Below, piece by piece: positions 2,825-42,242 of a stretch of DNA of 64,000 nucleotides. Both the position numbers and the translations under genes were made by a program. Numbering within the stretch: the first letter of the stretch is position 1; each line of letters starts with the position of its first letter. This DNA is from a virus. Under the pieces are notes generated by a model. It had not been told where the DNA came from. It saw nothing but the letters and a program-made list of their open reading frames with translations, and made no database searches. Location of the stretch: IMG/VR virus record IMGVR_UViG_3300031566_000020, positions 818-64,817 of that record; one strand, 5' to 3'.

Positions 2825-2825
2825 T

Positions 2826-15918: not shown

Positions 15919-16142
15919 CAAAGAAACTATTCAAAAATGTACTTGAACCATTTAAAAACTCTATTGTTTATAAATCAGTTAAAGAAGGACAGACTTCTTT
16001 TAGAATAACACAGCAATTAGTACAATCTATTTATTTAAAAGCAAGAAAATTGAAAACATTGGCAACACTCATCTTAACTATTCCGGCTAACAAAGAGGAA
16101 AATTACATACTTAGATGCCAAATCAGCAAGGAGAAAAAATGA
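15915..16142 (+). CDS. hypothetical protein (75 aa)
   Basis: ATGA overlap. Confidence 0.6.
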   Translation: MTKKLFKNVLEPFKNSIVYKSVKEGQTSFRITQQLVQSIYLKARKLKTLATLILTIPANKEENYILRCQISKEKK

Positions 16143-21912: not shown

Positions 21913-22055
21913 AAAAGACCACCAAATATAAAAAAAGAATATGGGAAGATAGGTTGCTTTGTGTTGAAACAACAAGCGATATTGTTGAAAGATACTTCAA
22001 AGGAAATTGGGATGTTAAGTTCAGGAATGAGGAGAACGGGGAGGAAACAAAATGA
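21909..22055 (+). CDS. small hypothetical protein (48 aa)
   Basis: Start supplied by repeat copy 5; ATGA overlaps at both ends. Confidence 0.5.
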   Translation: MKKTTKYKKRIWEDRLLCVETTSDIVERYFKGNWDVKFRNEENGEETK

Positions 22056-22669
22056 TTAGTGACCGTTTATGTGTAGAAGAAAGACATTTTAAAATCGCAA
22101 AAGAGATTAGACCATCTATTAAAAAGGATAATATTGTTTTAATTTATGGTACATCAGGAACAGGAAAAAGTGAAGTAGCTGATTGTTTGCAAGGGGAATT
22201 GTTTAATAAAAATATTTCAAGTTTTGTTCTTTCTTTAGATGATTATTATAACACTATTCCAAGTTTAAGAAATACTAATCGTAAAAAGATGGGATTAGAT
22301 TCTGTTGGATTACAAGAGATTGAATGGGAGCATTTAAGTAGAATTTGTGCAGACTTTCAAGAGAAGAAAACAATCTATTTTAAAAGAGTACATAAATTTG
22401 CAGATATTATTGAACATAATTCAATTGATACAGAAGAAGTTGATGTAATTATTATTGAAGGTTTATTTGCTGGTTATATGAAAAATTATGGTTATGGTGA
22501 CTTTGCAGTTTATTTAGATGGTAATCCAGCTCAAACATTAGCCTTTAGGGAAAAAAGGCGAAAAGAAAATCCTAATGATTCTTTTAGACAGAAAGTAGTG
22601 CAGAAAGAATTTAACATCATTTGTCAGTTAAAAAGATACGCTGATAAAATTATACCGTTTGAGGAATAA
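22052..22669 (+). CDS. uridine kinase / phosphoribulokinase-like P-loop kinase
   Basis: IYGTSGTGKS, LSLDDYY, VIIIEGLFA, FAVYLD. Confidence 0.75.
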   Translation: MISDRLCVEERHFKIAKEIRPSIKKDNIVLIYGTSGTGKSEVADCLQGELFNKNISSFVLSLDDYYNTIPSLRNTNRKKMGLDSVGLQEIEWEHLSRICADFQEKKTIYFKRVHKFADIIEHNSIDTEEVDVIIIEGLFAGYMKNYGYGDFAVYLDGNPAQTLAFREKRRKENPNDSFRQKVVQKEFNIICQLKRYADKIIPFEE

Positions 22670-24749: not shown

Positions 24750-25000
24750 TGGAAAAATATTGTAAAAATTGTGGTGAAGAAGTCCAGCAAGAATTATATG
24801 AAACAGGTATTGAAGAATTTTGTCGCTGTCAATGTACTTTAGAACCTGATTTTAATCCAGACTTATGGACAAACAATCTATTGGAAAGAAAACGTAAGAT
24901 AGCAAGGGATTTGAAAGACAGGATGAAAAAAGAATGGACAGGTCTGAATGGACAAGACTACCAAGAACAAACTCCATTAGAAAGTTTTGAAAATGAATAA
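24749..25000 (+). CDS. small Zn-ribbon protein, paralog of 19926-20084
   Basis: CKNCG...YETGIEEFCRCQCTLEPDFNPDLW. Confidence 0.7.
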   Translation: MEKYCKNCGEEVQQELYETGIEEFCRCQCTLEPDFNPDLWTNNLLERKRKIARDLKDRMKKEWTGLNGQDYQEQTPLESFENE

Positions 25001-25808
25001 TCCAATTATAATTTGTGCTTCAGGCAATTCTGTGCCTTTTTTGAATAGCCAATATTATAGAACGCATTGCGGATTACCATCAAAACTTCAATACACAATA
25101 CAGAATAATGTTTCTATTGGATTGAATTGGTTCTTTAAATACGGATGCCGGACAACTTTTACATCTTGGGTAGATTGGCAGTGGTATGTTTGGACAAAAG
25201 AACAAACACAATCTTTACCGCTTATGGTTGGAAATTATGACCAATCTTTAAAAAATCATAATGAAGATTTAACCAATAAGAATACGATTTTGTTGAAAAG
25301 TAGCAACACATATTATGGCAAAGAATCAATCGAAAAGGGAGTATACACAAAGCATTTGGTAGGGATTTGGGCTATGAGCCTTGCAGTTTCTTTGGGGTTT
25401 AAAGAGATATACCTTCTTGGCTATGATTGTTGCGAAGTAAACGGACAAACACATTTTTATCAAGGGGTTATTGATGTAAATCAATCAGTTCCTTTGAAGT
25501 TAAGAGGAAAGGTTGTTGAAAACAGACCTATATTTAGAGGAGTAGGAAAGAAAGAAGATGGGAAATATAAAACCGGAACATATAACCGGAAAGGTAAAGA
25601 TATAAGCGATACATATTTTGATAAGTTCACAACAGAAAAGGATGTCAAAATTTATAATGTATCAGAAGAAAGTATCATAACATCTTTTCCTAAAATTTCA
25701 TATGAAGAATTATATGAAAGAGTTGGCGATATTAAAGTTGATAATGATGCAATTAGGGATAAAATAAAGGAAGCTTTACATGAAAGAGCTTGTGATTGTA
25801 ACCGTTAG
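24993..25808 (+). CDS. MptE-like/DUF115 (Maf- or sialyltransferase-like) glycosyltransferase
   Basis: IICASGNS, IGLN, WVD, AMSLAVSLGFKEIYLLGYDC...THFY, KIYNVSEES...FPKIS. Confidence 0.7.
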   Translation: MNNPIIICASGNSVPFLNSQYYRTHCGLPSKLQYTIQNNVSIGLNWFFKYGCRTTFTSWVDWQWYVWTKEQTQSLPLMVGNYDQSLKNHNEDLTNKNTILLKSSNTYYGKESIEKGVYTKHLVGIWAMSLAVSLGFKEIYLLGYDCCEVNGQTHFYQGVIDVNQSVPLKLRGKVVENRPIFRGVGKKEDGKYKTGTYNRKGKDISDTYFDKFTTEKDVKIYNVSEESIITSFPKISYEELYERVGDIKVDNDAIRDKIKEALHERACDCNR

Positions 25809-25871
25809 TTTTGCGATATCAATTATATTAATTCCTGTCTATGTTTTATACAGGATATATAAAGGACTAAG

Positions 25872-26126
25872 ATGAGTTTAATATCAATAATGGGATGGGT
25901 AGGCAATATATTTTTCATTCTAGGGGCAATTTTTCTAGCAATGAAATGGATATCCGGATGGCATTGTCAAATCTTGGGTAATATTTGTTATGTTGTTTTC
26001 GCTGTTCTCATGGGGGTTGAAGGGGTGAGCCTTTGTGCTTTGTCTATTTTGTTAATAATTATAAATATATTTGGATGGAAAAATTGGAAGGAGCAAAAAA
26101 ATCAATGGATAACTATAAAAAATTAG
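25872..26126 (+). CDS. PnuC-like short (3-TM) membrane protein
   Basis: GWVGNIFFILGAIFLA...GWHCQILGNICY...NIFGWKNW. Confidence 0.6.
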   Translation: MSLISIMGWVGNIFFILGAIFLAMKWISGWHCQILGNICYVVFAVLMGVEGVSLCALSILLIIINIFGWKNWKEQKNQWITIKN

Positions 26127-26275
26127 ACTGTGTTAAAGGACTTTTAATGGGAATGGATAGACAGCTTCAGGCATTATGGGATAAGTCTATAGGCGAAGAA
26201 GCTCAAAATATTGTCATTGATAGATATTATGAAGCTATTATTAATTTTTTAAATGAGGAAGACACTAATGCCTAG
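26105..26275 (+). CDS. hypothetical protein (56 aa)
   Basis: AAGGAG RBS. Confidence 0.55.
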   Translation: MDNYKKLDCVKGLLMGMDRQLQALWDKSIGEEAQNIVIDRYYEAIINFLNEEDTNA

Positions 26276-26537
26276 ACCACACAGAAAATGGACAGTTATA
26301 TCTTCATATTTTAGAGAAGTGCTTGATACACCAACAAAAGCGATTATAAATGACCTTTTGAAAGAGGATAAAAACATTCTTCTTTTCATTAAAAAAGATG
26401 AACAAGATGAAGACCCAAAGAAAGGTCAATCAGAAAAGTTTAAAAAATTATGTGAGTTGTATGAAAACGAAACCAAATTAGGGAAAATAATTATTTCAGC
26501 AGTACCGGATATTGAAAAATACATTGAAATAGATTAA
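26268..26537 (+). CDS. hypothetical protein (89 aa)
   Basis: GAGG RBS; packed. Confidence 0.6.
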   Translation: MPRPHRKWTVISSYFREVLDTPTKAIINDLLKEDKNILLFIKKDEQDEDPKKGQSEKFKKLCELYENETKLGKIIISAVPDIEKYIEID

Positions 26538-26538
26538 A

Positions 26539-26718
26539 ATGAATATACTTTTAAGAAAAACATTATTATATCGTGTAATTAATTTAGTTGTTATAGGAAT
26601 GATTGTGTTTCTTATAACAAAAAACGTAGAAGAAGCACTTAAATTGAGTCTTGTGGTTGAAGTAACAAAAACTGTACTCTATCTTGTATACGAATATTTT
26701 TGGGAGCTTTCTCACTAA
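26539..26718 (+). CDS. DUF2061-like small membrane protein (59 aa)
   Basis: Missed by ORF track: MNILLRKTLLYRVINLVVIGMIVFLITKNVEEALKLSLVVEVTKTVLYLVYEYFW (KTxxYR...K..LY..E..W pattern). Confidence 0.65.
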   Translation: MNILLRKTLLYRVINLVVIGMIVFLITKNVEEALKLSLVVEVTKTVLYLVYEYFWELSH

Positions 26719-27434
26719 TGGAACTTAAAAACTTTATAATTTTAGGCAATTCAAAATGCGGTACAACGGGGCTGTATGCAACCATGAGCCAGCATCCTCA
26801 GATTGTTCCAGCAAGAACAAAGGAATTGTATTTTTTTGGTTCACCGAAATACACAAAGGGTGTTAATTGGTACAATAGCCAACTAGGAAAGTGTGATGAA
26901 AATCAAATCACAGGAGAATCTACACCTCCGTATTTTTTCCGAAAAGCATCAGTTCTCCAAATTTATAAATATGATAAAGATTTAAAGTTTATTGTTCTAT
27001 TAAGACATCCTGTGAAAAGAGTTATTTCTCATTATAACCATACGAGTGTACCTGGATATGCTTATCCGTTCTCAAAGTTTTTAGATAAAACATTAAAAAG
27101 GATATATATTGAAGCCCACCCATTTTTAATTTTATACCATGTCATTGGGAAAAGCTGTTACTATCCTATGATAAAATATTGGCTTTCTTATTTTCCAAAG
27201 AGCCAATTCCTGTTTGTTAAAAGCGAAGAGTATTTTACTCAGTCACAGAAGGTGTTAAACGAAATTTATAGGTTCTTAAATATTAGCGAATATGATACAG
27301 AGGTAATCCACGCATTAAAGGGCAAATACAGAGCAACAGTGACCGACGAAGACATCAAGCGATTAGAAGAGTATTATAAACCTTACAACAAACTGTTACC
27401 AGCCTTAATTGGTGAAAAATTTACATGGGAGTAG
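26718..27434 (+). CDS. PAPS-dependent sulfotransferase (heparan sulfate sulfotransferase-like)
   Basis: FIILGNSKCGTTGL (5'-PSB), QHPQI...KELYFF, GESTPPY, IVLLRHPVKRVISHY (3'-PB). Confidence 0.9.
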   Translation: MELKNFIILGNSKCGTTGLYATMSQHPQIVPARTKELYFFGSPKYTKGVNWYNSQLGKCDENQITGESTPPYFFRKASVLQIYKYDKDLKFIVLLRHPVKRVISHYNHTSVPGYAYPFSKFLDKTLKRIYIEAHPFLILYHVIGKSCYYPMIKYWLSYFPKSQFLFVKSEEYFTQSQKVLNEIYRFLNISEYDTEVIHALKGKYRATVTDEDIKRLEEYYKPYNKLLPALIGEKFTWE

Positions 27435-27439
27435 GATAG

Positions 27440-28051
27440 ATGAAAAACTATTTTTCTATAAGAAACGAAGAGCATATTAAGTTACAGTTGGAAGGAATGA
27501 AACAGCTTATCAATTTCTTCAGAACAGAATGCGGTGTCTATGCTTATTTAACCTATGGTTCGTTATTAGGGGCTGTTAGAAACCAAGATGTTATAGGTCA
27601 TGATACTGATTATGATATTGCCTATATGTCTAAATTCTCTGAACCAAAAGATATTCAGGCTGAATGGAGAGAGATATGCTGTAAACTAATTGATAACAAT
27701 ATGTTAGGCAAAATTTGGACTAAGCAAGGCATCTTTATCCATCCAACAAAAGACCAATTAGGTGATTTTTCCGGACAGATGCATGTGCAAACTCCAAATA
27801 GGGTTATTCATATTGATGTGTATACTTCCTTTTGTAAGAATGGAAAATACCATTTGAGTTTTGGAATTCATGGACACTTAAAGAGAAGTGATATTGTTCC
27901 TTTTGGCAAAGTAACATTAAGAGGTATTGACTTTCCAGCACCAAAAAGACCAGAAGCAATATTAAAATTTATGTATGGTAAGGATTGGATGACCCCAAAA
28001 GAAGCATATAAATATCAAGGAAAACGAAAGAAACTTTGGGAGTACAAATGA
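27440..28051 (+). CDS. licD: LicD family phosphotransferase
   Basis: YGSLLGAVRNQDVIGHDTDYDI, IDVY, PAPKRPEAILKFMYGKDW. Confidence 0.9.
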   Translation: MKNYFSIRNEEHIKLQLEGMKQLINFFRTECGVYAYLTYGSLLGAVRNQDVIGHDTDYDIAYMSKFSEPKDIQAEWREICCKLIDNNMLGKIWTKQGIFIHPTKDQLGDFSGQMHVQTPNRVIHIDVYTSFCKNGKYHLSFGIHGHLKRSDIVPFGKVTLRGIDFPAPKRPEAILKFMYGKDWMTPKEAYKYQGKRKKLWEYK

Positions 28052-28455
28052 AAAAAGTAATTACTTTCATGGTTGGAGATTTGTTTCACATAGGACATCT
28101 TAATATGCTTCAGAACGCTAAGAAGCTAGGAGATTATCTTATTGTTGGGATTCCTACATCATGGACTATAAAAGAACATATTAAAGGGAAAACTCCGATT
28201 TTTTCAGCAGAGGAAAGATTACGGATTGTTCAGGCTTTAGAGATTGTAGATTTTGCATTTATTTATACAGACAATGATAGTTTAGATGAATCAATAAGAT
28301 TATTAAAACCGGATATTATTTGCAGAGGAGATGACAACAAAAACTTTTTTGGTAAAAAAGCGTCAGAAGAAATAGGATGTGAGATTGTATATTTTCCATA
28401 TACACAAGGAATTTCATCAACAGAAATTAGGAGAAGATTATGCGAAGAAAATTAA
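28048..28455 (+). CDS. HxGH cytidylyltransferase (TagD / glycerol-3-phosphate CTase-like)
   Basis: GDLFHIGHLNML, LIVGI, EERL, PDII, YTQGISST. Confidence 0.9.
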   Translation: MKKVITFMVGDLFHIGHLNMLQNAKKLGDYLIVGIPTSWTIKEHIKGKTPIFSAEERLRIVQALEIVDFAFIYTDNDSLDESIRLLKPDIICRGDDNKNFFGKKASEEIGCEIVYFPYTQGISSTEIRRRLCEEN

Positions 28456-28631
28456 CAGATGAAGAAGTTTACATGATAGTTCGTGCAGAAGAAGAATGTG
28501 GTATGAACACTTTACTTCAAGAACTGTTTACATCAGAAAATCCTGTAGTTTATTGTGAGATTGATGAGAAGGGGTGTTTCGGAGAGTATACTGTTGAAGA
28601 AAAACATAAGAAAGTTAGGAGTAAAAAATGA
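28440..28631 (+). CDS. hypothetical protein (63 aa)
   Basis: AGGAG RBS; packed. Confidence 0.55.
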   Translation: MRRKLTDEEVYMIVRAEEECGMNTLLQELFTSENPVVYCEIDEKGCFGEYTVEEKHKKVRSKK

Positions 28632-29200
28632 GGGTAATATTTGGTGGAAATTCTGATATAGGAAAAGCGATTGAAGGGGAACATATATCTAGAAAAGATT
28701 GTGATGTAACAAAATTTAATGATGTTCTGCATATTATACAAACTTATAGACCAAATGAGATTGTGGATTGTGCTGGGGTTATTTATCCATCATCAATTTA
28801 CAGTTCAGATGTTTTAAGTTGGGAGCATGAGTTGAAGGTAAATTTAATAGGTTCTTACTATATTGCAAAGCTAGGTACACTTAATATAAACGCAAAGATT
28901 GTTTTCATTGGGTCTACAAGCGGATTAAGAGGTAGGGGTGATTGGAGTGGGTATTGTGCATCAAAGGCTGGATTAATATCTCTTGTTCAATCAATGGCTG
29001 AAGAAGGATATAATGCATGGGTGGTAAATCCATCAAGAACAGCAACCAAAATGAGAAAAAAGCTTTTTCCGGATGAAGACCAAAACACTTTATTGCAACC
29101 TTCAGATATAGCAAAAGTTGTGCAAGGATGTTTTGACGGTGTTTATAAATCCGGTAGTAGTATTACAGTAAAAAAAGATAAAATAATTGTAGAGGAGTAA
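28628..29200 (+). CDS. SDR oxidoreductase (Bcs1-type ribulose-5-phosphate reductase-like)
   Basis: GGNSDIG, AGV, NLIG, GSTSGLRGR, YCASK, NPSRTATKMRKKLFPDED. Confidence 0.8.
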   Translation: MRVIFGGNSDIGKAIEGEHISRKDCDVTKFNDVLHIIQTYRPNEIVDCAGVIYPSSIYSSDVLSWEHELKVNLIGSYYIAKLGTLNINAKIVFIGSTSGLRGRGDWSGYCASKAGLISLVQSMAEEGYNAWVVNPSRTATKMRKKLFPDEDQNTLLQPSDIAKVVQGCFDGVYKSGSSITVKKDKIIVEE

Positions 29201-29202
29201 TT

Positions 29203-29604
29203 ATGAAACTAAAATTTAAAACAGATGGTATTTTTACAGACATCACCGAAAAATTAAAGCCAACAATTAAAGATGGTATTTTAGTGGTATCAACCCAACA
29301 TACAACATGTATGTTAGCTATTCTTGAAAATGAATCATTGTTAAAGAAAGATATGGAAGGATTTTTAGAAAGAATTGCTCCGGAAAAAGGTGTTTATGCT
29401 CATGATTATATTGAGAAAAGAGATGTTCCTCCGGATGAAAGAATTAACGGTTTTTCTCATATCAGAGCAATGATGTTTCAACCATCATTAACAATTCCTG
29501 TAGAAGATGGCAAACTGGTACTTGGAAAATGGCAAACAGTATTCTTAATTGAATTAGACCCAAAAAGGGAACGAACTCTACATGTTGTCGAAATCGAAAA
29601 ATAA
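29203..29604 (+). CDS. yjbQ: YjbQ/UPF0047 family protein
   Basis: QHTTC, ENE...D, YAHD, NGFSHIRA, LVLGKWQTVFLIELD. Confidence 0.9.
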   Translation: MKLKFKTDGIFTDITEKLKPTIKDGILVVSTQHTTCMLAILENESLLKKDMEGFLERIAPEKGVYAHDYIEKRDVPPDERINGFSHIRAMMFQPSLTIPVEDGKLVLGKWQTVFLIELDPKRERTLHVVEIEK

Positions 29605-29613
29605 GGATTTATT

Positions 29614-32310
29614 ATGACTGACCAAATGCATCTTTTAAAAAAAGTTACTGATTTGCTTAAAGATAATAATATCGAATATTTCCTTGACTGTGGAACTCTA
29701 CTTGGTGCAGTTAGAGAAGGAGATTTTCTTGCTCATGATGCCAATGATATTGATATTGGATTGAAGCAAGAGGACTATTGGAAAGTAAGAACCATAATAG
29801 ACCGACATTTTGAGTTAGAATATAAAAATTATTGGAGAGCTGAAATTGCAGTTACTCTTGATAATAAATGCCATCTAGATATGTTTTTCTATACAGATGA
29901 AGGGAAATATCTAGCAACTCAAGCATGTTTAGGTAACCCAATGCAAAGAGGGATTAATATAGAATCTGAAACACGAAGATTAAAAGAGAATATTTTTCCT
30001 TTGAAAACAATCAAAATGAAAAGAAAAACTTTCTTTGTTCCAAATAATCCGGAAGCTGTATTAGAAGAACAATATGGGAAAGAATGGAGAACTCCTGTTA
30101 CAAAATGGTATCATGAATATGGACAGGGCTTAAATCCGGAGCATAGAACCATAGGAATATTAATCACAGCGTTTTTAAGAGATGACAAGCTTTTTAAAGA
30201 AGTAAATTCGATATTACAGTATTGCGATAAAGATGACCTATTCAGAAAATGGATTCGTATTTATATTGCTGACCAAGGAAATCCAGAATGGTCAGAAGAA
30301 AAACAAAGATTCTATGACCAATTAAGAGCAAACGGACATAAGATATTTAAAACACCTTACAATTCCGGGCTATCATACAACAGGAACTTTTTGGTTGAGC
30401 AAAGCAACGAACCATACCTGATGATTATAGATGATGATTTTGAGTTTACCGAAAAAACGGATTTAACTCAAATGATTGAAATTTTAAATCATAGAGAGAA
30501 AAACGGAATTGTTGGTGGAGATATTGATGAAAGACCTCCATATCATGCAAACTTAATGTTTGAAGTTAAGGGTGGAATTAATCATCTTTATAGAATACAA
30601 AAAATGAATCAAGAACAGAATGTTAAGAATTACAAATACTATTATACAGACATTGTGCTTAATTTCTTTTTAGCCAAACGAAAAGTCTTAGAAGATGTTA
30701 AATTAGACAACAATTTAAAATTGGTTGAACATTCTGACCACATGCTCCGTATTAAAAGAGATTCAGATTGGAAAGTGTGCTATTGTCCAGATGTTACATG
30801 TAGACATCAAAGAGGTAGAGATAGTGATGAGTATCGTAATTTCAGGCATAATCATAACTATGTGCAAATGTTTTTAGATAAATGGAATATTAAAGAAGAA
30901 AGAAACGCACACAAAGTATATGTAACTCCAATAAAAGAAATTAAGTGTATTGAAGAAAAACCTGAACATAAAGAAAAAATAAAAGTTGTTCAGATTGCAA
31001 GGATTCCATGTGCCAATAGTGCATATGAAGTGTCAAACCTATTAAATAAGTATTCAGATAAATATGAATCACGTTATATTTTAGGAGCAGAATATAGCCG
31101 AAACAATCAAACTATTCCTTTCAGACAATTTCCTTATGATATCTTATGGAAAGAAAATCAAGAGGAAGCTATTAGACTTATTAAAGAAGCAGATATTATT
31201 CATATTCACCACGATTCATGGGAAGACATAGAACAATATTTTGAAGGAAAGTGTGTTGTAAGTACGTTGTATAATTTAACACAGTCTTTACAGTATAAAG
31301 ATAATAAATTTAATAATGATTATCTTAATAAATTAAAATCTTTTGGACATATAACAGTTGCAGACCAGCCACTTCAAAAAATAATGTTCAGTGATATTTC
31401 AACTGACACTGTTCCATTAGTAAAAATGATGTTTGGGTTAAGAGTTTATGACAACGGAAATAAAAATGTTGTTATAGGCTTTGCTCCAACAAATAAAAGC
31501 CCTATAGGTATAGGAAGTAAAAGATTTGAAGAAGTTATGACTGTGATAAACGGTCTTAAAGAAAAATATGACTTTGAATTTAAATTAATCGAAGGACTTC
31601 CTTATGAAGAAAATTTGGTAGAAAAAGGCAAATGTGACATCATTATTGATGATGTTGATGATAGGTATGAAAAGGCTCACAACACAACTATTGAAGCTGG
31701 AATGCTCAATGCAGTTCCATTGACTAATTATAGTGGAGATTGGTATCCAGCACATAAGACATCAATCATTAACTTACAAGAAACTTTAGAGTTATATTTA
31801 GAGAACCCGGCATTGATAGAAGATTATCGTAAACGGATTTTGGAAAAATGGAGAGCCGAAGTGTATACTCCTCAAAATTTGTTAAAAGAATTTGAAAGAG
31901 TTTATGATAGTTTAACAATAAAGAAATCTATAGAAGAAATAGCAATACCAGATACAAAAGATTTATCAATTAAAGAAGAATTTATTTTACTAGATTCAAT
32001 TTTTGAACAAAATAAAATTGATTATTGTTTAATAAAAACAAGTTGTTTAGATGCAGTAAGGTTTGGAGAACCTCGTTTAACACCAGATACAATACATATA
32101 GCGGTAAAAGATATTGAAAAAGCGTCAGCGATTTATAAAGAATTAAATTTAAAATTAAAGGTTAAGTTTTCTACTAATATGCCACCAAAAATGAAAGAGA
32201 TTGGATTTTTTGGAAGGGCTAGAAAGATTCCATTTCCTGTAATTCCATATCTTCAAAATTTTTATGGATATGGAACAAGGTGGAGAAAGTATGGTATAAC
32301 AGAACAATGA
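29614..32310 (+). CDS. four-domain glyco-enzyme: LicD + GT-A (GT2/GT12-like) + GT-B (GT4-like) + degenerate LicD
   Basis: GTLLGAVREG...DIDI; GLSYNRN...IIDDDFEF...VLNFFLA; IGFAPT...DIIIDDV...TIEAG; C-terminal YCLIKTSCLDAV...PVIPYLQNFYG. Confidence 0.85.
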   Translation: MTDQMHLLKKVTDLLKDNNIEYFLDCGTLLGAVREGDFLAHDANDIDIGLKQEDYWKVRTIIDRHFELEYKNYWRAEIAVTLDNKCHLDMFFYTDEGKYLATQACLGNPMQRGINIESETRRLKENIFPLKTIKMKRKTFFVPNNPEAVLEEQYGKEWRTPVTKWYHEYGQGLNPEHRTIGILITAFLRDDKLFKEVNSILQYCDKDDLFRKWIRIYIADQGNPEWSEEKQRFYDQLRANGHKIFKTPYNSGLSYNRNFLVEQSNEPYLMIIDDDFEFTEKTDLTQMIEILNHREKNGIVGGDIDERPPYHANLMFEVKGGINHLYRIQKMNQEQNVKNYKYYYTDIVLNFFLAKRKVLEDVKLDNNLKLVEHSDHMLRIKRDSDWKVCYCPDVTCRHQRGRDSDEYRNFRHNHNYVQMFLDKWNIKEERNAHKVYVTPIKEIKCIEEKPEHKEKIKVVQIARIPCANSAYEVSNLLNKYSDKYESRYILGAEYSRNNQTIPFRQFPYDILWKENQEEAIRLIKEADIIHIHHDSWEDIEQYFEGKCVVSTLYNLTQSLQYKDNKFNNDYLNKLKSFGHITVADQPLQKIMFSDISTDTVPLVKMMFGLRVYDNGNKNVVIGFAPTNKSPIGIGSKRFEEVMTVINGLKEKYDFEFKLIEGLPYEENLVEKGKCDIIIDDVDDRYEKAHNTTIEAGMLNAVPLTNYSGDWYPAHKTSIINLQETLELYLENPALIEDYRKRILEKWRAEVYTPQNLLKEFERVYDSLTIKKSIEEIAIPDTKDLSIKEEFILLDSIFEQNKIDYCLIKTSCLDAVRFGEPRLTPDTIHIAVKDIEKASAIYKELNLKLKVKFSTNMPPKMKEIGFFGRARKIPFPVIPYLQNFYGYGTRWRKYGITEQ

Positions 32311-32891
32311 TAAATATACTTATAACAGGACATCCTAGAAGTGGTACACATTATATTGCTAATCTTTTAAATGCTTTAGGACATTCGTGTACCTACGAAA
32401 AAAGAAATCCTAATGGTTTTACTGCTTCTTGGAAACATATTAAGAGTGGAGTTTTTGAACCGCCATGCAGAGAAACAGAAATCGTTTGTGATTTTGATAA
32501 AATAATTCATCAAGTCAGACATCCTTTAAAGGTTATTGCATCTTCTACTACACTTTGGACAATGAGCATGATTTATATGGCTCAATTTATAGAACTTCCA
32601 GACCCAATTGTTAATAGAGAAAACACAATAAAAAATTGTATGGTTACTTGGTTAAAATGGAATGAGTTTATTGAAAAGAAAGCAGTATGGCGATATAGAT
32701 TAGAAGATTTAAAATATGTAAATAAAGAATGGTGCGAACAATTGGAAATCCCTTATTGTGAGATACCAAATAAAAGTCCTGTAAATACTAGAAAACATAT
32801 AGAATTAAATTGGTCAGATTTATATAAAATCAATACTGAATTAACAACAGAAATAAGGTCAAAGGCTTTTGAATATGGATACTCAACCTAA
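32307..32891 (+). CDS. second sulfotransferase-like protein
   Basis: ILITGHPRSGTHY (5'-PSB), HQVRHPLKVIAS (3'-PB). Confidence 0.8.
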   Translation: MINILITGHPRSGTHYIANLLNALGHSCTYEKRNPNGFTASWKHIKSGVFEPPCRETEIVCDFDKIIHQVRHPLKVIASSTTLWTMSMIYMAQFIELPDPIVNRENTIKNCMVTWLKWNEFIEKKAVWRYRLEDLKYVNKEWCEQLEIPYCEIPNKSPVNTRKHIELNWSDLYKINTELTTEIRSKAFEYGYST

Positions 32892-33705
32892 AATCGCAAT
32901 TTGTATTCCTACAATTCTAAAAGATAATGGCTTAATGCAATCACTTAATTCGATACTTGATGTTTATCAAGACAATTGGGTAGTGCTTATTGGTGAACAG
33001 AATAATATCGAAGATTATAGTGAAGAAAAAACTATTTTCTATCATACAGCTTGTGCAAAGGCACATGATGATTTACATCAGGATAGATTTAAAGTGGTTA
33101 AACTTCCTTATGATTGTGGTTTATCTTATGCAAGAAATAAGCTTGTTGAGAAAGCAATGGAAATAGGAGCAGATTATTGTGTTATTTCAGCAGATAGTAT
33201 TATGTTCACAGAATCAATGAAAAAATTAAATGAGTTATTTATTTGCTTTAAGGAGTATGATGTTGTTGGGTTAGAATTAAAAGGACGTATTTCTTGGGAA
33301 GCCTATTTAGATATACAAGAAGCATTTGTATTTGATTTTATTGAAAGGCATCCGGTTAATGCTCTTTTAGATAGATATACAGACAAGCAAATAACGGTTC
33401 ATACTTGTGATGTAATACGGAATTTCTTTATGGCAAAAACTCCGGTTTTAGCTTCTGTTCTATGGGATGATAATGTGAAGATGGGGGAGCATGGTGATTG
33501 GTTTTGGAGATTAAAACAAGAAGGGTTTAAGGTAGGATTTACAGATTATTGTGAAGGTCAGTATCGTTCAAATATAGAAACAGAATATAAACAGTTACGT
33601 CAGAAGAACTTAGAGATTGGTAAGGATTATATGAAAAAGAAATACAATCTCAAAAAATGGCATGAATATATTCATTTAGAAAGAGTTAGGAAACCCAATG
33701 TTTAA
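32875..33705 (+). CDS. GT-A glycosyltransferase (GT2/GT12-like), paralog of the GT-A domain in 29614-32310
   Basis: ICIPT, LPYDCGLSYARNKLV, CDVIRNFFMAK, EHGDWF; DxD degenerate (ISADS). Confidence 0.8.
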   Translation: MDTQPKIAICIPTILKDNGLMQSLNSILDVYQDNWVVLIGEQNNIEDYSEEKTIFYHTACAKAHDDLHQDRFKVVKLPYDCGLSYARNKLVEKAMEIGADYCVISADSIMFTESMKKLNELFICFKEYDVVGLELKGRISWEAYLDIQEAFVFDFIERHPVNALLDRYTDKQITVHTCDVIRNFFMAKTPVLASVLWDDNVKMGEHGDWFWRLKQEGFKVGFTDYCEGQYRSNIETEYKQLRQKNLEIGKDYMKKKYNLKKWHEYIHLERVRKPNV

Positions 33706-34399
33706 TATAATAAAAACAATATTTGATACAACAATTGCTATTTTTTTCTCTATTGAAACATACCAGTTTTTATTTTGTTTACTAATCACAGTTTCCATAC
33801 ACGAATTGGCTCATATGCTAGTGGCTCTAAAATGCGGTATGGGGGTCAAAGCATTTTCAATAGGGTTCGGTAAACCTTATTTACATAAAACCTTCAAGGG
33901 GATAGATTTTAGGCTTTCTCCGTTGCCTTTTGGGGGGTATTGTGACATAAAGGGCATGGAATCCAAGGAAGAACCTGATGATTTTTTGGCACATCCATAT
34001 AGGAACAAATTTGCTGTTTTAATTGCCGGAGTAACTGTTAATATCCTGTTTGCCTGTATTTGCTACATTATAAACTTTGGTTCTATTCGGCTTGGGTTTG
34101 CAATAGACATGGAGTTTTTAAAGGCATTGTTTACAAAGGATTATGAAATGGTAGCCTTTTTGGTTAGAAACATTCCTATGAATTGGCTTATTTTACAGCT
34201 ATCCTTGCTTAATATGTTCTGTGGATTAACCAATTTAATTCCTTTTCCGGCTCTTGATGGAGGGCATTTATGGGAAGTATTATTAGAGAAACCTTTAGGA
34301 GATAAATTTATTCCTGTTTACAGAGCTTTAAATTACTTTGGATTTATATTTTTGATTATTTTACAATTATATTTGTTATGGTGGGTTTACTTTAAATAA
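33698..34399 (+). CDS. M50 site-2 intramembrane metalloprotease (RseP-like, no PDZ)
   Basis: IHELAH, FSIGFG, LPFGGYC, AGVTVN, NLIPFPALDGGH. Confidence 0.92.
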   Translation: MFNIIKTIFDTTIAIFFSIETYQFLFCLLITVSIHELAHMLVALKCGMGVKAFSIGFGKPYLHKTFKGIDFRLSPLPFGGYCDIKGMESKEEPDDFLAHPYRNKFAVLIAGVTVNILFACICYIINFGSIRLGFAIDMEFLKALFTKDYEMVAFLVRNIPMNWLILQLSLLNMFCGLTNLIPFPALDGGHLWEVLLEKPLGDKFIPVYRALNYFGFIFLIILQLYLLWWVYFK

Positions 34400-34408
34400 G
34401 GAGTTATC

Positions 34409-34801
34409 ATGGAAAAACCAAGATTTACAGTTCAATACGAAGATAATACAAACTTTTCTGGAGTTACAATGGAAAGAGATTGGATGAAAATTGATGAATC
34501 CAAGAAGATTATCCGGGCTATTTTTGTATTTAATAATTCTCAAGTTATTTTAGAAGGTTACAAACAATACAACCATGTTATTGAAAAAGTTGCATTTGGA
34601 AAAAGCGGTATTAGTAGATTTATGTATATGGGAAGAAAAGAAAATAGCACTGATATTTTTGTTATTGATTTATTAAATAAGAGAATGTTTAAAAAAGAAC
34701 TTCCTATTTATCAAGAGTACGGAAAGCAAATTCTTAATGGTTGGCAAGAAGGTAAATTAAATAACCCAAGAATGCTATTCAACAATGCCGAAATTCGCTA
34801 A
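34409..34801 (+). CDS. hypothetical protein (130 aa)
   Basis: AAGGAG RBS. Confidence 0.7.
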   Translation: MEKPRFTVQYEDNTNFSGVTMERDWMKIDESKKIIRAIFVFNNSQVILEGYKQYNHVIEKVAFGKSGISRFMYMGRKENSTDIFVIDLLNKRMFKKELPIYQEYGKQILNGWQEGKLNNPRMLFNNAEIR

Positions 34802-35111
34802 TACTTATATAAAGAAATGTAATGCTCTAGGTATTAATCCATTAACACAGGATGAACTTGTGGAGCTTTGCAAACAGCTTCCAAAGTATCAAAAGAAGAC
34901 CTATCTCCAATTGTTGAGTTGTTTTAGGGTTGGAATATCAAGAACATGCTGTAATGGTTATTTAGAATCACAAACTTTAAACGACCTTTGGTTAATGTTT
35001 TATATCAATGAAGCATTTGGGTGGGGGTGGTTTGAAGGAAAGAATGAATGGATAAGAGTAAATAAATACAGCTCTCCAAAAATTATCTTAGATATTCCGA
35101 AGGATTCTTAA
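34785..35111 (+). CDS. hypothetical protein (108 aa)
   Basis: Last + strand ORF; converges with the structural operon. Confidence 0.6.
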   Translation: MPKFANTYIKKCNALGINPLTQDELVELCKQLPKYQKKTYLQLLSCFRVGISRTCCNGYLESQTLNDLWLMFYINEAFGWGWFEGKNEWIRVNKYSSPKIILDIPKDS

Positions 35112-35619
35112 AATCAACAAGAATTTTAGCTTCTGGAACAATTAAAGGGTCACTGTCAAAATACTTTTTTATATAGGAAGACATTCTTAAATAGAGAGTA
35201 TTATCTTTCACATCAAAAACAGAAGTTTGCTGTACATTATATTGTCCATTATAAAAATCAATTTCATTCTCAATCCCTGATTGATATACAATATTATAAG
35301 TAATGTAAGGCATTATCGTTTCAGCTAAAGATTCTACAACTCCCTCACCAGCTATTGAAGCAATAGTTACATCCCAAGATTTAAAAACATATTCCACTTC
35401 TCCGTCTTCATCTAATAGAAAATCCATAACTTCAAAATCAGTAGAATAGTTACGAAATTTTGCTTGATAGTAGATATGCTTATTACCATCTCTGGTAATT
35501 TGTATCCATTTATCTCTATCACTATATTCATTTTTTAGAGTAGAATCGTTTTTATTATCATACCTATTTGCAGTTTCTAAAACAGGTTTCTCTCTCATTT
35601 CATCTCTTGGAGTTGTCAT
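35083..35619 (-). CDS. hypothetical, probable tail-tip associated protein
   Basis: Last gene of the - strand operon; ATGA overlap. Confidence 0.6.
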   Translation of the reverse strand: MTTPRDEMREKPVLETANRYDNKNDSTLKNEYSDRDKWIQITRDGNKHIYYQAKFRNYSTDFEVMDFLLDEDGEVEYVFKSWDVTIASIAGEGVVESLAETIMPYITYNIVYQSGIENEIDFYNGQYNVQQTSVFDVKDNTLYLRMSSYIKKYFDSDPLIVPEAKILVDFKNPSEYLR

Positions 35620-36611
35620 GTGACGTAAATCTTTCCTTCTGAATAAGTATTTGGGTTAATATAATACATCATTAATTTAACTTCAAAGTCTACACCTGAT
35701 GCTTTATAAGTTTTGTATTCAACATGGGAATAGTCTGTTTCTGTAGTTGCTGGTGAAATCTGAAGCATATCACCAGAAATTTCAAAATCAAACTCTTGGT
35801 CATTCTTCTTTGTAAAAACTTTCTTTTGGTGTGCAGTATTTACTCTTTCTTCGCTGACTAATTCAAAGGCATCATATGGTGGATTTGTTGTAAATAAAAC
35901 ATCATCAAACCAATCATTCACAACATCCACTGCATCTTCATATGAATAATAAGCTAATAAGCCATTAAATGTAACAACTCCACTATCTTCCCAATACTGT
36001 CCGGGTGTTTCACATCCTTCACAAGCACAAACAGCATTATCAGCCCCTATATATCTTTCTCCGGGTAAAACATGAACCGGATTTTCACTTACAGGAACTG
36101 GAAAATGAGCTTGAGGGTATTTGAATCCGTAGCCAACACCAGCAGTATATAATTCGGAAGGGTTTGGTGATAAAAGCTCTGCTCCGCATCCAGATGTATA
36201 TGTAATACCTTGCCAATCATATAAATGAAATTGAACAGCCATATAACCACTTCTTGTATAACTAAAAACATTTTGAATAGTAACATCTGCATTTGACTTA
36301 ACAAGAATTACTGGTTTAAGGTAAGGCAATAATTCATCAGTAATTGCAATTGTTCCTGTAAATTCATATTTTGCTCTTTCAGGCAAAAGGGTATTTTCTT
36401 CTGTTGATGTGGCTTCTGGTATATCTTCATGCTCTAATACTGTCCAATCAGATTCATAAACAATATGAGAATTTTTAACATATTCATGAGCTGACATCCT
36501 ACGAAAATCAGGAACTTTTTCTATTATAGTAAGGTTCTTATTATTCTCTGAAACCTTTTCCTTAATATAATCTAATTTTTTTGGTTGATTGTAAGGTCTA
36601 TGTTGTGTCAT
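35616..36611 (-). CDS. probable minor tail protein (331 aa)
   Basis: Position; MTQHR start resembles the neighbour's MTQYR; C-terminal YINPNTY resembles AINPNTY (paralog-like). Confidence 0.55.
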   Translation of the reverse strand: MTQHRPYNQPKKLDYIKEKVSENNKNLTIIEKVPDFRRMSAHEYVKNSHIVYESDWTVLEHEDIPEATSTEENTLLPERAKYEFTGTIAITDELLPYLKPVILVKSNADVTIQNVFSYTRSGYMAVQFHLYDWQGITYTSGCGAELLSPNPSELYTAGVGYGFKYPQAHFPVPVSENPVHVLPGERYIGADNAVCACEGCETPGQYWEDSGVVTFNGLLAYYSYEDAVDVVNDWFDDVLFTTNPPYDAFELVSEERVNTAHQKKVFTKKNDQEFDFEISGDMLQISPATTETDYSHVEYKTYKASGVDFEVKLMMYYINPNTYSEGKIYVT

Positions 36612-37255
36612 TTTATTTTTTCTTTTGTTAATGCATCATAGGTATTAGGGTTAATCGCACATAACTCTGCTTTAACAAGTAATTGTGAATCTGCATCTTC
36701 TACAGAAAAGAAAGCATTGTAATAGAAAGTATAATTATCCCCTTCTTGATGCCATCTATAACTTTCATTAAAATCTAAACAATTTACAGTTTCATTAATA
36801 TCGTTATAAATATAAGATTTTAATTTCATATAATTTATAACTCTCTCTGTCATATTATGGAACGTAAGTTGAGTTTGAATAATACCAACTGTTTTTGTGT
36901 ATTCCCAATCATCTTCAGATGTGCCCGGAGCATATAGGTGGGCTGGTATTCCTTGTGGTACTCTAAAATCTTGAGTTGGATATAAAAAAAACCATCCTCC
37001 TCTATAGCCTGATTGATAAGCTGTAGAGGGTTCTGGTTCAATAGATGTATAAATTATTCCATTCCAATCATAGAGGTCATAATAAGTAGGAGTTGTATCA
37101 AGAGAATAAATTTTATTCATCTTAAATACAGGAACAGACTGTTCTATTGGCTTCTGTTTCTCTATTTGAGAAATGCGATAGAGAATATCTAAAGTTTCTT
37201 GATATATATCATTAAGTTTGCTATTTTTATTAACAAAAGTACGATATTGTGTCAT
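36608..37255 (-). CDS. probable minor tail protein (215 aa)
   Basis: Shares LYDWxGI.YTS motif with 35616-36611. Confidence 0.55.
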   Translation of the reverse strand: MTQYRTFVNKNSKLNDIYQETLDILYRISQIEKQKPIEQSVPVFKMNKIYSLDTTPTYYDLYDWNGIIYTSIEPEPSTAYQSGYRGGWFFLYPTQDFRVPQGIPAHLYAPGTSEDDWEYTKTVGIIQTQLTFHNMTERVINYMKLKSYIYNDINETVNCLDFNESYRWHQEGDNYTFYYNAFFSVEDADSQLLVKAELCAINPNTYDALTKEKIK

Positions 37256-39930: not shown

Positions 39931-39943
39931 AATTTAAACCCCT

Positions 39944-40366
39944 TTATGCTAATTGAATTATTCCGCTACTTGACCAATTAATTTGAAATGTTCCGTTTAA
40001 TACAACCTCGTCATCTCCAAAATCAATAGAACAAATAAGGTCATCTGTTCCTATTGTATCATCATAGATAACTGCATGACGAGCTGTAAAAGATGCTGAT
40101 GTCCATGATAAATTATCTGCATCAAAATTTGCAACGTCATTAGCATCATCCTGTGTAACAGACTGATTGGCTAATGTTTTTTGTTCGTAACCAGTACCAC
40201 TTGTTTCTACTTCATTTGCAGAAACATCAGCGAGAACATCATCATCAGCGTCAAAACTATGACTAGAATCCAATAAAAGAACTTTTATTGTATCCCCACC
40301 TGTTCCCATATCCATTAATGCATTCATTAAATTAGCTTTTGCTCTATTATAAACACCTGAAGCCAT
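39944..40366 (-). CDS. conserved phage tail structural protein
   Basis: DTIKVLLL...ANEV..GTGY...FDADNLSWT.ASFTARHAVIYDDT...LICSIDFG. Confidence 0.7.
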   Translation of the reverse strand: MASGVYNRAKANLMNALMDMGTGGDTIKVLLLDSSHSFDADDDVLADVSANEVETSGTGYEQKTLANQSVTQDDANDVANFDADNLSWTSASFTARHAVIYDDTIGTDDLICSIDFGDDEVVLNGTFQINWSSSGIIQLA

Positions 40367-40368
40367 TT

Positions 40369-40551
40369 TTATTCCTCCTGATATTGTCCACTTAATTTTA
40401 AAGGTTTTTGAATATTCACTTCAAAATCATTTGAACCATCTGTATAATAAGTATATTTTTTTAAAGCTGGTATTTTTTGTACACTACCATCTTTTAAAGT
40501 TACTGTGATAAAACTTTCTTTAGTAACAATTTCTTTTACTATTTTATCCAT
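40369..40551 (-). CDS. hypothetical protein (60 aa)
   Basis: AGGAG RBS; packed. Confidence 0.55.
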   Translation of the reverse strand: MDKIVKEIVTKESFITVTLKDGSVQKIPALKKYTYYTDGSNDFEVNIQKPLKLSGQYQEE

Positions 40552-40559
40552 TATTTCTC

Positions 40560-41162
40560 CTAAGTAATTAATGATGTATCTTCGGTAAATTCATATGTAC
40601 CACCGGATAATTCTGTTACTCTTACAATTGTAGAAGGAACTGCGTAAGTAGCAATCCAAATATCTCCGTTTCCATCTACAGTCATTGACTTAGCATTTGT
40701 GATAGTAGTTCCGCTTTTTGTTAAATCAACAGTTGTTTGAAGAACTCCGGATGTGTTGTATTTTAAAAGCTTGGCATTAGCTCCACTTGCAGAGCCGGGC
40801 AACAAATACCATAAATCAGAGCCACTTATTAAAACATCAACAGGGTCTTCTGATTCAGGGTTTGTAATTTCAACGGTTGTTGTTAAAGGATTTGAAGCTG
40901 AAATAATTTCACCCAATAAAGTTGTATCTGAATAAGCTAAATAGATATAGGTTGCATCTCCGGCAATTGCCACAATTTCATCCACATATTTATTTAAACT
41001 ATAGTATGTCTGTTCAGGGTCAAGACATCCTTGTTTTTTCAAAATACAATAATCACTACTATTCTGTGCAAAAGCTGTCCATAAATGGTTGCTATTTGTA
41101 TCAGAATACATAGCAGTGACATCTTCATTGCTTGAAAAACTATGTTGAGTTGTGATTGTCAT
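40560..41162 (-). CDS. beta-propeller-like structural protein
   Basis: Repeated D-xx-G-xx-W/Y strands (DGNGDIWIAT, SGSDLWYL). Confidence 0.5.
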   Translation of the reverse strand: MTITTQHSFSSNEDVTAMYSDTNSNHLWTAFAQNSSDYCILKKQGCLDPEQTYYSLNKYVDEIVAIAGDATYIYLAYSDTTLLGEIISASNPLTTTVEITNPESEDPVDVLISGSDLWYLLPGSASGANAKLLKYNTSGVLQTTVDLTKSGTTITNAKSMTVDGNGDIWIATYAVPSTIVRVTELSGGTYEFTEDTSLIT

Positions 41163-41175
41163 TATTTATCCTTTA

Positions 41176-41808: not shown

Positions 41809-41823
41809 ACTATTTCTCCTTTG

Positions 41824-42240: not shown

Positions 42241-42242
42241 GA

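Follow-up and report, generated by a model that had tools for sequence, protein, structure and literature searches.

The DNA considered here comes from IMG/VR record IMGVR_UViG_3300031566_000020, a linear contig of 68,226 bp that is 73% complete by CheckV. The 64 kb of the record that was analysed (its positions 818 to 64,817) is called the window, and coordinates given without a contig name refer to it. From position 24987 the window contains a cluster of genes that appears to encode the synthesis of a glycan. Every gene between 24987 and 35111 is on the + strand, and neighbours between 26253 and 35111 overlap by 4-17 nt or sit 1-9 nt apart, with all frames intact and translationally coupled. 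The original prediction, made from the DNA letters, described a co-oriented and tightly packed block, and this is borne out: there is a single overlapping + strand operon, with the named enzyme types at or near the positions that it gave them. It had missed three genes of the block, namely those for YjbQ/UPF0047, a PnuC-like membrane protein of 84 amino acids (aa) and an M50 protease. Related contig loci are numbered L001-L030; G000 is the contig of the window phage, and G004 is the genome of a relative, with terminal repeats. The genes, including open reading frames (ORFs) of no known family, are as follows.

24987..25808, + strand: Maf/DUF115-like (MptE-like fold) transferase, 273 aa, clade-core; Pfam MptE-like E 6e-6, below cut-off
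25872..26126, + strand: PnuC (NMN transporter)-like three-helix membrane protein, 84 aa; Pfam NMN_transporter 28.3 bits, cut-off 27.3
26033..26537, + strand: two small conserved ORFs, 80 and 94 aa; tblastn 50-53% and 32-35% identity in L003-L005, no Pfam family
26539..26718, + strand: DUF2061 membrane protein, 59 aa; Pfam E 1.3e-10
26721..27434 (ORF open from 26700), + strand: carbohydrate sulfotransferase, heparan sulfate 3-OST-like; Sulfotransfer_1 E 3.4e-17
27440..28051, + strand: stand-alone LicD phosphotransferase, 203 aa; Pfam LicD E 1.3e-7, 32.4 bits (cut-off 22.6)
28036..28455 (likely start 28048), + strand: HxGH nucleotidyl(cytidylyl)transferase, TagD/RfaE-II group; CTP_transf_like E 1.4e-18
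28440..28631, + strand: 63-aa ORF; 44% in L003, no family matched
28628..29200, + strand: short SDR (short-chain dehydrogenase/reductase) oxidoreductase, 190 aa; adh_short E 4.4e-14, 52.9 bits against a cut-off of 26.6 (PF00106)
29203..29604, + strand: YjbQ/UPF0047; UPF0047 E 1e-31, TIGR00149 88 bits, above cut-off
29614..30138, + strand: fusion domain 1 (residues 1-175), LicD/FKRP-like; Pfam LicD E 6e-12, 46.5 bits (cut-off 22.6)
30139..30948, + strand: fusion domain 2 (residues 176-445), GT-A, B4GALNT1 (GT12)-like; Glycos_transf_2 E 4e-9, residues 196-360
30967..31926, + strand: fusion domain 3 (residues 452-771), GT-B, GT4-like; structural match only, Z 20-22 to GT4
31939..32310, + strand: fusion domain 4 (residues 776-898), degenerate LicD-like (LicD'); hhalign against domain 1, probability 94%, E 1.4e-7
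32307..32891, + strand: probable mini-sulfotransferase, 194 aa, ATGA-coupled to the fusion gene; Sulfotransfer_3 E 5e-5
32875..33705, + strand: stand-alone GT-A paralogue of fusion domain 2, 276 aa, clade-core; BLASTP E 5e-23, 30% identity, residues 180-412
33698..34399, + strand: M50 site-2-type membrane metalloprotease, HELAH present; Peptidase_M50 E 1e-35
34409..35111, + strand: two conserved ORFs, 130 and 108 aa, closing the + strand operon; tblastn 27-67% in L003-L006, L012 and L014

Domains and enzymes of the cluster

The 898-aa fusion protein was modelled by AlphaFold from 23 homologues (mean pLDDT 83). In its first domain the Pfam LicD match covers residues 16-71, the nearest solved relative is FKRP (6kaj, E 4.4e-6), and D42, D45, D47, H87 and D89 are invariant among the 23 homologues. 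The second domain is a GT-A glycosyltransferase (Glycos_transf_2, 37.1 bits against a cut-off of 23.3) with an invariant DDD motif, D273-D274-D275. Its best match by far is human B4GALNT1 (profile E 3.8e-14, Foldseek 1.5e-16), with which the model superimposes at Z 23.7 and an rmsd of 2.4 Å over 232 residues; it resembles the prophage enzymes TarP and TarS too. The third domain has no match in Pfam and no sequence match in the PDB, and was identified from its structure instead, as a GT-B fold close to BshA (Z 22.2) and PimA (20.2; WbaZ-like) over about 290 residues, and to T4 alpha-glucosyltransferase (19.9). The E-x7-E motif of GT4 enzymes is present, E686 being nearly invariant and E694 invariant. 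The fourth domain, LicD', has no Pfam match either, and does not retain the invariant D-x-D and H-x-D residues of domain 1, because of which it is probably non-catalytic. The three LicD-type domains originally predicted therefore stand as folds, the third (776-898) being without catalytic residues; probably two are active.

The gene at 32875-33705 encodes a second GT-A protein, so that the two GT-A domains and one GT-B domain of the original prediction are all accounted for. In this paralogue DDD is changed to a conserved x-(A/S)-D-S, while the EH-D motif is retained, across nine relatives; this pattern of conservation suggests an active enzyme with altered metal binding. The paralogue is found in all relatives compared.

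The fusion belongs to a large family. Full-length homologues number about 30, with identities of 39-60%, and the contigs that carry them are 20-139 kb long; a profile of the fusion finds 369 clusters at E <= 1e-30 among 1.84 billion representatives searched. Domain HMMs of our own distinguish three orders: LicD-GTA-GTB-LicD' (window phage and L007), GTB-LicD-GTA-LicD' (L009, L012 and L014, with the fusion gene at about 9980-12850 in each), which is a circular re-ordering, and LicD-GTA-LicD' (L029 and L030), from which GT-B is missing. LicD' is C-terminal in every architecture examined. Architectures also vary among the 369 clusters, which include LicD-GT-A alone, GT-B-LicD' alone and longer fusions. 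A scan of IMG/VR based on the alignment of the family gave 18 loci, and a pattern scan based on the single protein gave none. Searching the fusion against 50,697 phage records by tblastn matched just a 143-residue GT-A stretch in Salinibacter phages.

Of the two sulfotransferases that were predicted, the first is secure. It scores 63.1 bits against a cut-off of 22 (PF00685), has the K-x-G-T-T and R-H-P-x-x-R-x-x-S loops of the family, and its nearest solved relatives are HS3ST3A1/5/1 (E 3e-23 to 5e-20). Together with FKRP and B4GALNT1, this upholds the parallels with animal enzymes that the original prediction had drawn. The second (32307-32891) is a probable sulfotransferase, judged by its motifs: it is below the Pfam cut-off (24 bits against 27), two motifs resembling the loops that bind 3'-phosphoadenosine 5'-phosphosulfate (PAPS) are invariant in 21 homologues, and in the same homologues R11, a 'RHPLKVIAS' block and W42/H44 are invariant or nearly so. 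Atlas scores against viral sulfotransferase clusters are 0.93-0.95; PDB sequence and profile searches gave no match. Both enzymes presumably draw on host PAPS, since the contig has no kinase for adenosine 5'-phosphosulfate (APS), the P-loop kinase at 22052-22669 being uridine-kinase-like. L003 and L006 pair their sulfotransferase with an APS kinase.

DUF2061 is confirmed as predicted. The APS kinase gene of L003 (L003:4501-5235) is about 40 residues longer than usual, and its N-terminus matches the window DUF2061 in tblastn (29%). This suggests that the gene is a DUF2061-APS kinase fusion, which would tie DUF2061 to sulfate activation. A complex prediction for the first sulfotransferase with DUF2061, as a possible membrane tether, scored 0.00, which is no answer and weighs neither way.

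Four genes of the block bear on the activation and transfer of an alcohol. The stand-alone LicD has an intact H-D-x-D-x-D motif (H-D-T-D-Y-D in the translation), aligns with fusion domain 1 (E 3e-9), and has the Mf1 cholinephosphotransferase as its best NCBIfam match (E 8e-12). The HxGH enzyme scores 67.8 bits against a cut-off of 21 (PF01467) and has both H18-I-G-H21 and G-I-S-S-T. The predicted cytidylyltransferase is thus right as to family, while at the level of substrate it scores about alike as RfaE-II and TagD and reaches neither equivalog level: rfaE_dom_II (TIGR02199) gives E 1.9e-23 and 82.9 bits against a cut-off of 181.5, and g3p_cytidyltrns TagD (TIGR01518) gives 2.1e-19 and 69.9 against 165.4. 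The predicted SDR is above the gathering score of adh_short and has the G-G-N-S-D-I-G and Y-C-A-S-K (YxxxK) motifs of a classical SDR. Its match begins at profile position 50, the cofactor-binding region being partly shortened, and its many equivalog matches, including sorbitol-6-P dehydrogenase, are all below cut-off. Its predicted role is the reduction of a ketose phosphate to a polyol phosphate.

The fourth gene encodes YjbQ. An SDR-YjbQ pair is found in four independent phages (window 28628-29604, L003:7786-8937, L029:8948-10004 and L030:8944-10004), and in each YjbQ lies beside a short SDR and a cytidylyltransferase of HxGH or IspD type, or is separated from them by no more than one short ORF. 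Elsewhere in the clade YjbQ is replaced by DUF2284, which lies beside a full-length SDR. This suggests that YjbQ and DUF2284 take part in making an activated polyol phosphate. An SDR adjoining an IspD-type enzyme is the Bcs1/TarIJ design for CDP-ribitol. The exchange between IspD-type and HxGH-type enzymes leaves the SDR, YjbQ and LicD constant, which argues for some CDP-polyol as the product here too. LicD enzymes use CDP-activated alcohols (PMC11666461). In L006 a 586-aa NTP_transferase/aminotransferase fusion (L006:7623-9383) precedes LicD and replaces the SDR and the HxGH enzyme. It recalls the cytidylyltransferase-transaminase fusions of aminoethylphosphonate pathways, and by this analogy some members of the clade may attach a different phospho(no)-alcohol.

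The 273-aa transferase that opens the cluster was predicted to be DUF115/Maf-like, and its structure supports this. By Pfam it falls short of Maf/DUF115 (PF01973), with 26.5 bits against a cut-off of 34.6. Its model (pLDDT 74) has Maf 5mu5 as top match (Z 14.6, with 197 residues aligned; Foldseek E 3e-4), and the fold is that of the Maf central domain. The next folds are HPPK (MptE; Z 9.5) and the sialyltransferase Cst-I (Z 9.0), and a profile of the family weakly matches CstII (E 0.007). An N-terminal G-x-G-x-S and an L-L-G-x-D ... H-F-Y motif are conserved, and the gene was found in 10 distinct relatives. Compared with the Maf flagellin glycosyltransferases (5mu5) and the GT42 sialyltransferases (CstII), the fold is alike; however, the phage protein is the Maf central domain alone, without the flanking flagellin-binding domains, and the cluster has no genes for CMP-nonulosonate synthesis.

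Taken together, the enzymatic capacity that was originally proposed (an activated phospho-alcohol, phosphotransfer by LicD, glycosyl transfers and sulfation) is present, and within it the identity of the alcohol as a polyol is something that we infer. As to the small genes, the PnuC-like protein covers profile positions 1-72 of 175, which is one three-helix repeat of SemiSWEET-like size, and is kept at 37-67% in L003-L006; it could be a half-transporter or a holin-like protein. The M50 gene is accessory: it has the same position in L005/L010 (62%) and L014 (27%), lies elsewhere in L030, and is absent from the flanks retrieved for the remaining relatives. The closing ORFs of 130 and 108 aa matched no family, and an Atlas look-up of the former was uninformative.

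Relatives and exchange of cassettes

The proposal that the same gene set be searched for in IMG/VR yielded syntenic relatives, all with the core trio of Maf-like gene, fusion and GT-A paralogue: the trio is present in 10 of the 10 distinct relatives that have enough flank. Eight annotated contexts (L003-L007, L009, L029 and L030) share one layout, consisting of SbcCD, the Maf-like gene, a variable block, the fusion with the GT-A paralogue, and a convergent tail module that starts with a large Laminin_G_3 protein. This synteny holds even in phages whose fusion protein is just 30-60% identical. The variable block contains the following.

Window phage and L003: sulfotransferase, LicD, HxGH transferase, short SDR, YjbQ (L003 additionally APS kinase)
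L004, L005 and L007: DUF2284, full-length SDR, HxGH transferase, LicD
L006: APS kinase, sulfotransferase, NTP-transferase/aminotransferase fusion, LicD
L009: two methyltransferases
L029 and L030: IspD-type cytidylyltransferase, short SDR, YjbQ

G004 has the core trio, including the LicD-bearing fusion, and no cytidylyltransferase of either type and no Sulfotransfer_1.

Exchange can be seen between close siblings. L001 is about 100% identical to the window over 27480-42310, whereas L001:1-1000, corresponding to window 26459-27480, has a DUF2061 and a sulfotransferase that are only 55-80% identical. The right boundary of the difference is at the start of the LicD gene; the L001 contig ends before the left boundary. 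The difference is a clean allelic cassette replacement.

These observations bear on the possibility, named in the original prediction as its refutation, that the block is a recently captured and perhaps decaying fragment of a host lipopolysaccharide (LPS) or capsule locus, with no phage-specific role. The enzyme families are indeed typical of bacterial surface-polysaccharide loci. However, the GC content of the window is 0.29-0.36 throughout and that of the cluster 0.30-0.33, with no step relative to the remainder of the phage. The frames are intact and coupled, with no sign of decay, the order of the genes is conserved among phages as divergent as those described above, the family extends to hundreds of clusters, and a scan of 185,579 species genomes for the pattern of the fusion alignment gave no confirmed relative, and thus no prophage or host clue. 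The chance that the block is such a fragment is very slight, and recent capture from a host is in practice refuted. The phage owns the cluster: the core goes far back in the clade, and the periphery consists of modules that are exchanged. Neither a megablast of the 8.7-kb block, nor tblastn of the first sulfotransferase and of the stand-alone LicD, gave a match in the 50,697 phage records.

Candidate acceptors of the glycan

The reading that we prefer, with a probability of about 0.42, is that the cluster is a phage-owned cytoplasmic glycan assembly line, a hallmark of a clade of uncultured soil and sediment tailed phages, and that it acts on virion proteins. In such a pathway the short SDR, possibly with YjbQ, would convert a ketose phosphate to a polyol phosphate, from which the HxGH enzyme would use CTP to make a CDP-polyol. 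Both intact LicD domains would then put polyol phosphate on the growing glycan, which the GT-A, GT-B, GT-A-paralogue and Maf-like transferases would build from host nucleotide sugars, and to which the one certain and the one probable sulfotransferase would add sulfate from host PAPS. The acceptors would be tail, baseplate/fibre or capsid proteins, modified in the cytoplasm before or during assembly, and the outcome would be a strain-variable, anionic, teichoic-acid-like coat on the particle. In its full detail, as a sulfated polyol-phosphate coat with a Maf-like starter, a modular extender of FKRP/B4GALNT1/GT4 type and cassette-swapped chemistry, the proposal is a tentative one, and rather less likely than not to be right.

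Among the Pfam matches in the window cluster and in the precomputed ones of nine relatives' clusters there is no initiating polyprenyl-phosphate transferase, no flippase and no ABC exporter, and the transferases themselves match no membrane-protein family. With no lipid-carrier initiator or exporter found there, the acceptor would be either a cytoplasmic molecule or an intermediate of the host. Virion proteins are favoured as the acceptor because the core genes are fixed throughout the clade and the cluster abuts tail genes, because the 273-aa core enzyme resembles a protein (flagellin) O-glycosyltransferase, and because of the parallel with the chlorovirus and mycobacteriophage systems. Even so, we rate the virion as target at somewhat below an even chance.

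Several points weigh against it. No acceptor was found, the virion proteins having no Ser/Thr-rich tracts beyond the fibre proteins, which are S/T-rich in general. The cluster is on the strand of the replication and recombination genes, outside the virion operon: all genes of window 1-35111 are on the + strand, and the virion genes occupy the - strand from 35083 onwards. The cluster thus converges on them, where the original prediction had placed it directly before them. The operon includes three or four small membrane proteins (PnuC-like, DUF2061, a 31-aa transmembrane ORF and M50), which hint at a membrane-associated step. For LicD enzymes that have been characterised, the substrates are nearly always glycoconjugates of the envelope. 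Finally, the nucleotidyltransferase reaches neither equivalog level that would define its substrate, and the Maf-like fold includes pyrophosphokinases.

Some of the same points suggest the host envelope as the target. The enzymes could act at the cytoplasmic face of the membrane on lipid-linked intermediates of teichoic acid, LPS, capsule or glycolipid and so mask the receptor, which would exclude superinfection, prevent debris from trapping the progeny, or amount to lysogenic conversion. The best match of the stand-alone LicD is a glycolipid cholinephosphotransferase, the GT-A domain resembles TarP/TarS from prophages, and the operon includes genes for membrane proteins. CpsC, of the LicD family, extends polyol phosphate on a primer of the capsule (PMC11666461), and the same idea has been put forward for licD and ispD of 'Flandersviridae' (PMC8008677). 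G004, which has the LicD-bearing fusion and no cytidylyltransferase, would need a host pool of CDP-alcohol. A tyrosine recombinase/integrase gene at the left end of the contig means that the phage may be temperate. In the virion module, a pectinesterase-like beta-helix and three Laminin_G_3 proteins indicate that host surface glycans matter to the phage. These genes are as follows.

G000:C1:119-898 (L031), reaching left of the window: tyrosine recombinase/integrase; Phage_integrase E 3e-28, with a SAM-like N-domain
37255-39930, 50277-52340, 58116-60212 and 60214-63999, - strand: a 1,318-aa protein with the pectinesterase-like beta-helix stretch and three large Laminin_G_3 (lectin-like) proteins
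Elsewhere in the virion module, - strand: a tape-measure protein

The particle is thus rich in carbohydrate-binding or carbohydrate-cleaving domains; a ChaB domain occurs on a 649-aa protein just beyond the window. Phage genes that modify receptors are normally patchy morons of one to three genes, expressed from a prophage. Here, by contrast, a core with six transferases keeps its position throughout a deep clade, within an operon of the lytic cycle, and the flippase, initiating transferase and exporter are not found in the Pfam results for the cluster. We consider envelope remodelling a possible but somewhat unlikely explanation.

A third candidate of the original prediction was phage DNA, with SP-15 as its example. 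On this reading a modified base would be decorated with sugar, phospho-alcohol or sulfate, in the style of SP-15 or the T-even phages, and restriction evaded. The cluster comes after the replication and recombination genes on the same strand, which also carries genes that suggest editing of the nucleotide pool.

1689-3212, + strand: two NDT-family (Nuc_deoxyrib_tr) paralogues, then a dATP/dGTP-diphosphohydrolase N-domain-like protein
22052-22669, + strand: P-loop kinase, uridine-kinase-like
Other + strand genes: 5'-3' exonuclease, M42 peptidase, Prim-Pol, RuvC, amidoligase, RecA, PolB
Further + strand genes: trypsin-like peptidase, MgtC, split SbcC with SbcD

The uridine-kinase-like gene would also fit, as would the diversity of cassettes, which would suit an arms race with restriction. 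T4 alpha-glucosyltransferase is among the matches of the GT-B domain (Z 19.9), but generic GT4 enzymes match it equally well or better. DNA is nevertheless the weakest of the predicted targets, and one that we regard as highly improbable. No thymidylate-synthase-family hydroxymethylase (PF00303) was found in the contig, which is 73% complete, or in the records of five relatives, among them G004 with its terminal repeats, the records being in part incomplete, and the closest relatives of every domain are enzymes of glycans or protein glycans. We know of no LicD, Maf-like enzyme or sulfotransferase that acts on DNA. A match to the Tet/JBP family was sub-threshold, lay inside recA and was judged spurious. 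Alongside the nucleotide-pool genes, the contig has no purZ, queuosine or hydroxymethylase genes.

The remaining possibility is another cytoplasmic product (a sulfated glycolipid, an osmolyte-like polyol-phosphate sugar or a modified cofactor) or a glycosylated protein other than those of the virion, such as host flagellin, pilin, an S-layer precursor or a phage effector. Homology to Maf points to flagellin-type substrates, the MptE-like and thiamine-pyrophosphokinase folds are related, the YjbQ and PnuC-like families are annotated with cofactor chemistry, and Mf1, of the LicD family, makes a phosphocholine glycolipid. Against this, four to six transferase domains and two sulfotransferases exceed what a small metabolite normally needs, there is no carrier or export gene, and there is no positive and specific support. 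We consider it unlikely, and distinctly more so than either virion or envelope.

The window DNA has been found in soil metagenomes from several studies, and in no RNA run. A bacterial host is argued for by the type of RecA and RuvC here, and by peptide deformylase and ribosomal protein bS21 in relatives. Two relatives' contigs were binned into Asgard metagenome-assembled genomes (Helarchaeota and Promethearchaeota): L006 (a contig of GCA_054387555.1), which itself encodes a bacterial bS21, and P0118. An archaeal host was rejected, as RecA, RuvC, peptide deformylase and bS21 of the clade are of bacterial type, and the Asgard labels are probably mis-binned low-GC phage contigs. Genes for peptidases and protein maturation are unusually abundant in the clade, including M42, trypsin-like (window 6075-7139 and 16115-17223) and M50; the same trend is seen in L007, L029 and L030, with M17, M16, M24, ClpP and peptide deformylase. 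Scans of 21-37 kb for promoter and terminator consensus sequences gave chance level only, and were not used.

Comparison with known systems

The nearest phage systems in concept are those of the mycobacteriophages Che8, Corndog and Myrna, in which Freeman et al. reportedly described virion glycosylation in 2023. Both have phage-encoded soluble glycosyltransferases, no lipid carrier or exporter, a presumed cytoplasmic action on structural proteins, and gene sets that differ between related phages. In the mycobacteriophages, however, there are two to four plain glycosyltransferases inside the virion operon, whereas the window cluster faces the virion genes from the other strand, has a CDP-alcohol/LicD branch, sulfotransferases and a four-domain fusion as well, and would make a virion glycan that is so far only predicted. 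Among the giant viruses, chlorovirus PBCV-1 (A064R, A111/114R) and mimivirus make their own atypical capsid or fibril glycans by means of multi-domain glycosyltransferase fusions and methylation. The likeness lies in the virus-made glycan, the multi-domain fusions with tailoring enzymes, and clusters that differ between clades. These are viruses of eukaryotes, though, the characterised cases are without LicD, polyol phosphate or sulfation, and the homology is that of generic glycosyltransferase folds.

For the donor branch the comparison is with ISPD-FKTN-FKRP of alpha-dystroglycan, TarI/TarJ and H. influenzae Bcs1, which likewise combine a reductase, a cytidylyltransferase and a phosphotransferase of LicD fold. 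In L029/L030 the IspD-type enzyme adjoins the SDR, as in Bcs1; the window phage differs in having an enzyme of HxGH (TagD/RfaE-II) type, a truncated 190-aa SDR, and YjbQ as a constant partner. In Actinobacillus pleuropneumoniae, the LicD-family CpsC/Cps7C and multi-domain CpsD polymerases make teichoic-acid-like polymers (PMC11666461). There too LicD adds polyol phosphate from a CDP-polyol alongside a multi-domain enzyme that alternates sugar and polyol-phosphate transfer. That system has a lipid primer, an ABC exporter, TagF-type domains and TPR modules, none of which is present in the phage cluster. The resemblance of the GT-B domain to the T-even DNA glucosyltransferases consists of the fold and the position after DNA-metabolism genes, and is no closer than its resemblance to any GT4 enzyme; no hydroxymethylase was found in the contig or the five relatives, as noted above.

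The original prediction knew of no characterised precedent in a phage. This holds for the full combination, since the literature searched describes no phage cluster in which a CDP-alcohol pathway and LicD occur together with a multi-domain synthase and sulfotransferases. It does not hold for LicD as such: a two-gene insertion of licD and ispD is found in some 'Flandersviridae' gut phages (Benler et al. 2021; PMC8008677). There, as here, the LicD gene adjoins a cytidylyltransferase gene in a non-structural module of an uncultured phage. Those are two accessory genes, however, in a lineage of Bacteroides phages, with no glycosyltransferase fusion, sulfotransferase or Maf-like gene. What the window locus adds is the polyol-phosphate branch, the four-domain synthase family and the status of a clade core.

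Synthesis of glycans by virus-encoded enzymes is established for giant viruses and a few mycobacteriophages. Within the literature searched, neither phosphodiester-linked polyols nor sulfate esters have been reported from it. The cluster brings to light a large modular enzyme family with shuffled domains, so far confined to uncultured phage contigs, and offers a natural experiment in non-orthologous replacement within a CDP-alcohol pathway. Three orphan families, UPF0047/YjbQ, DUF2284 and DUF2061, become connected with steps of polyol-phosphate activation and sulfation, and the exchange of a sulfotransferase cassette between near-identical phages is the mark that diversifying selection leaves on a surface. 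Should the host envelope prove to be the target, no phage system for receptor remodelling as elaborate as this one has been described. If instead the glycan coats the virion, it would be the first sulfated and the first polyol-phosphate virion glycan in any bacterial virus, and YjbQ/UPF0047 would gain a role in CDP-polyol synthesis. Soil phages would then carry strain-specific anionic coats, which would affect adsorption, host recognition, and recognition by immune and defence systems.

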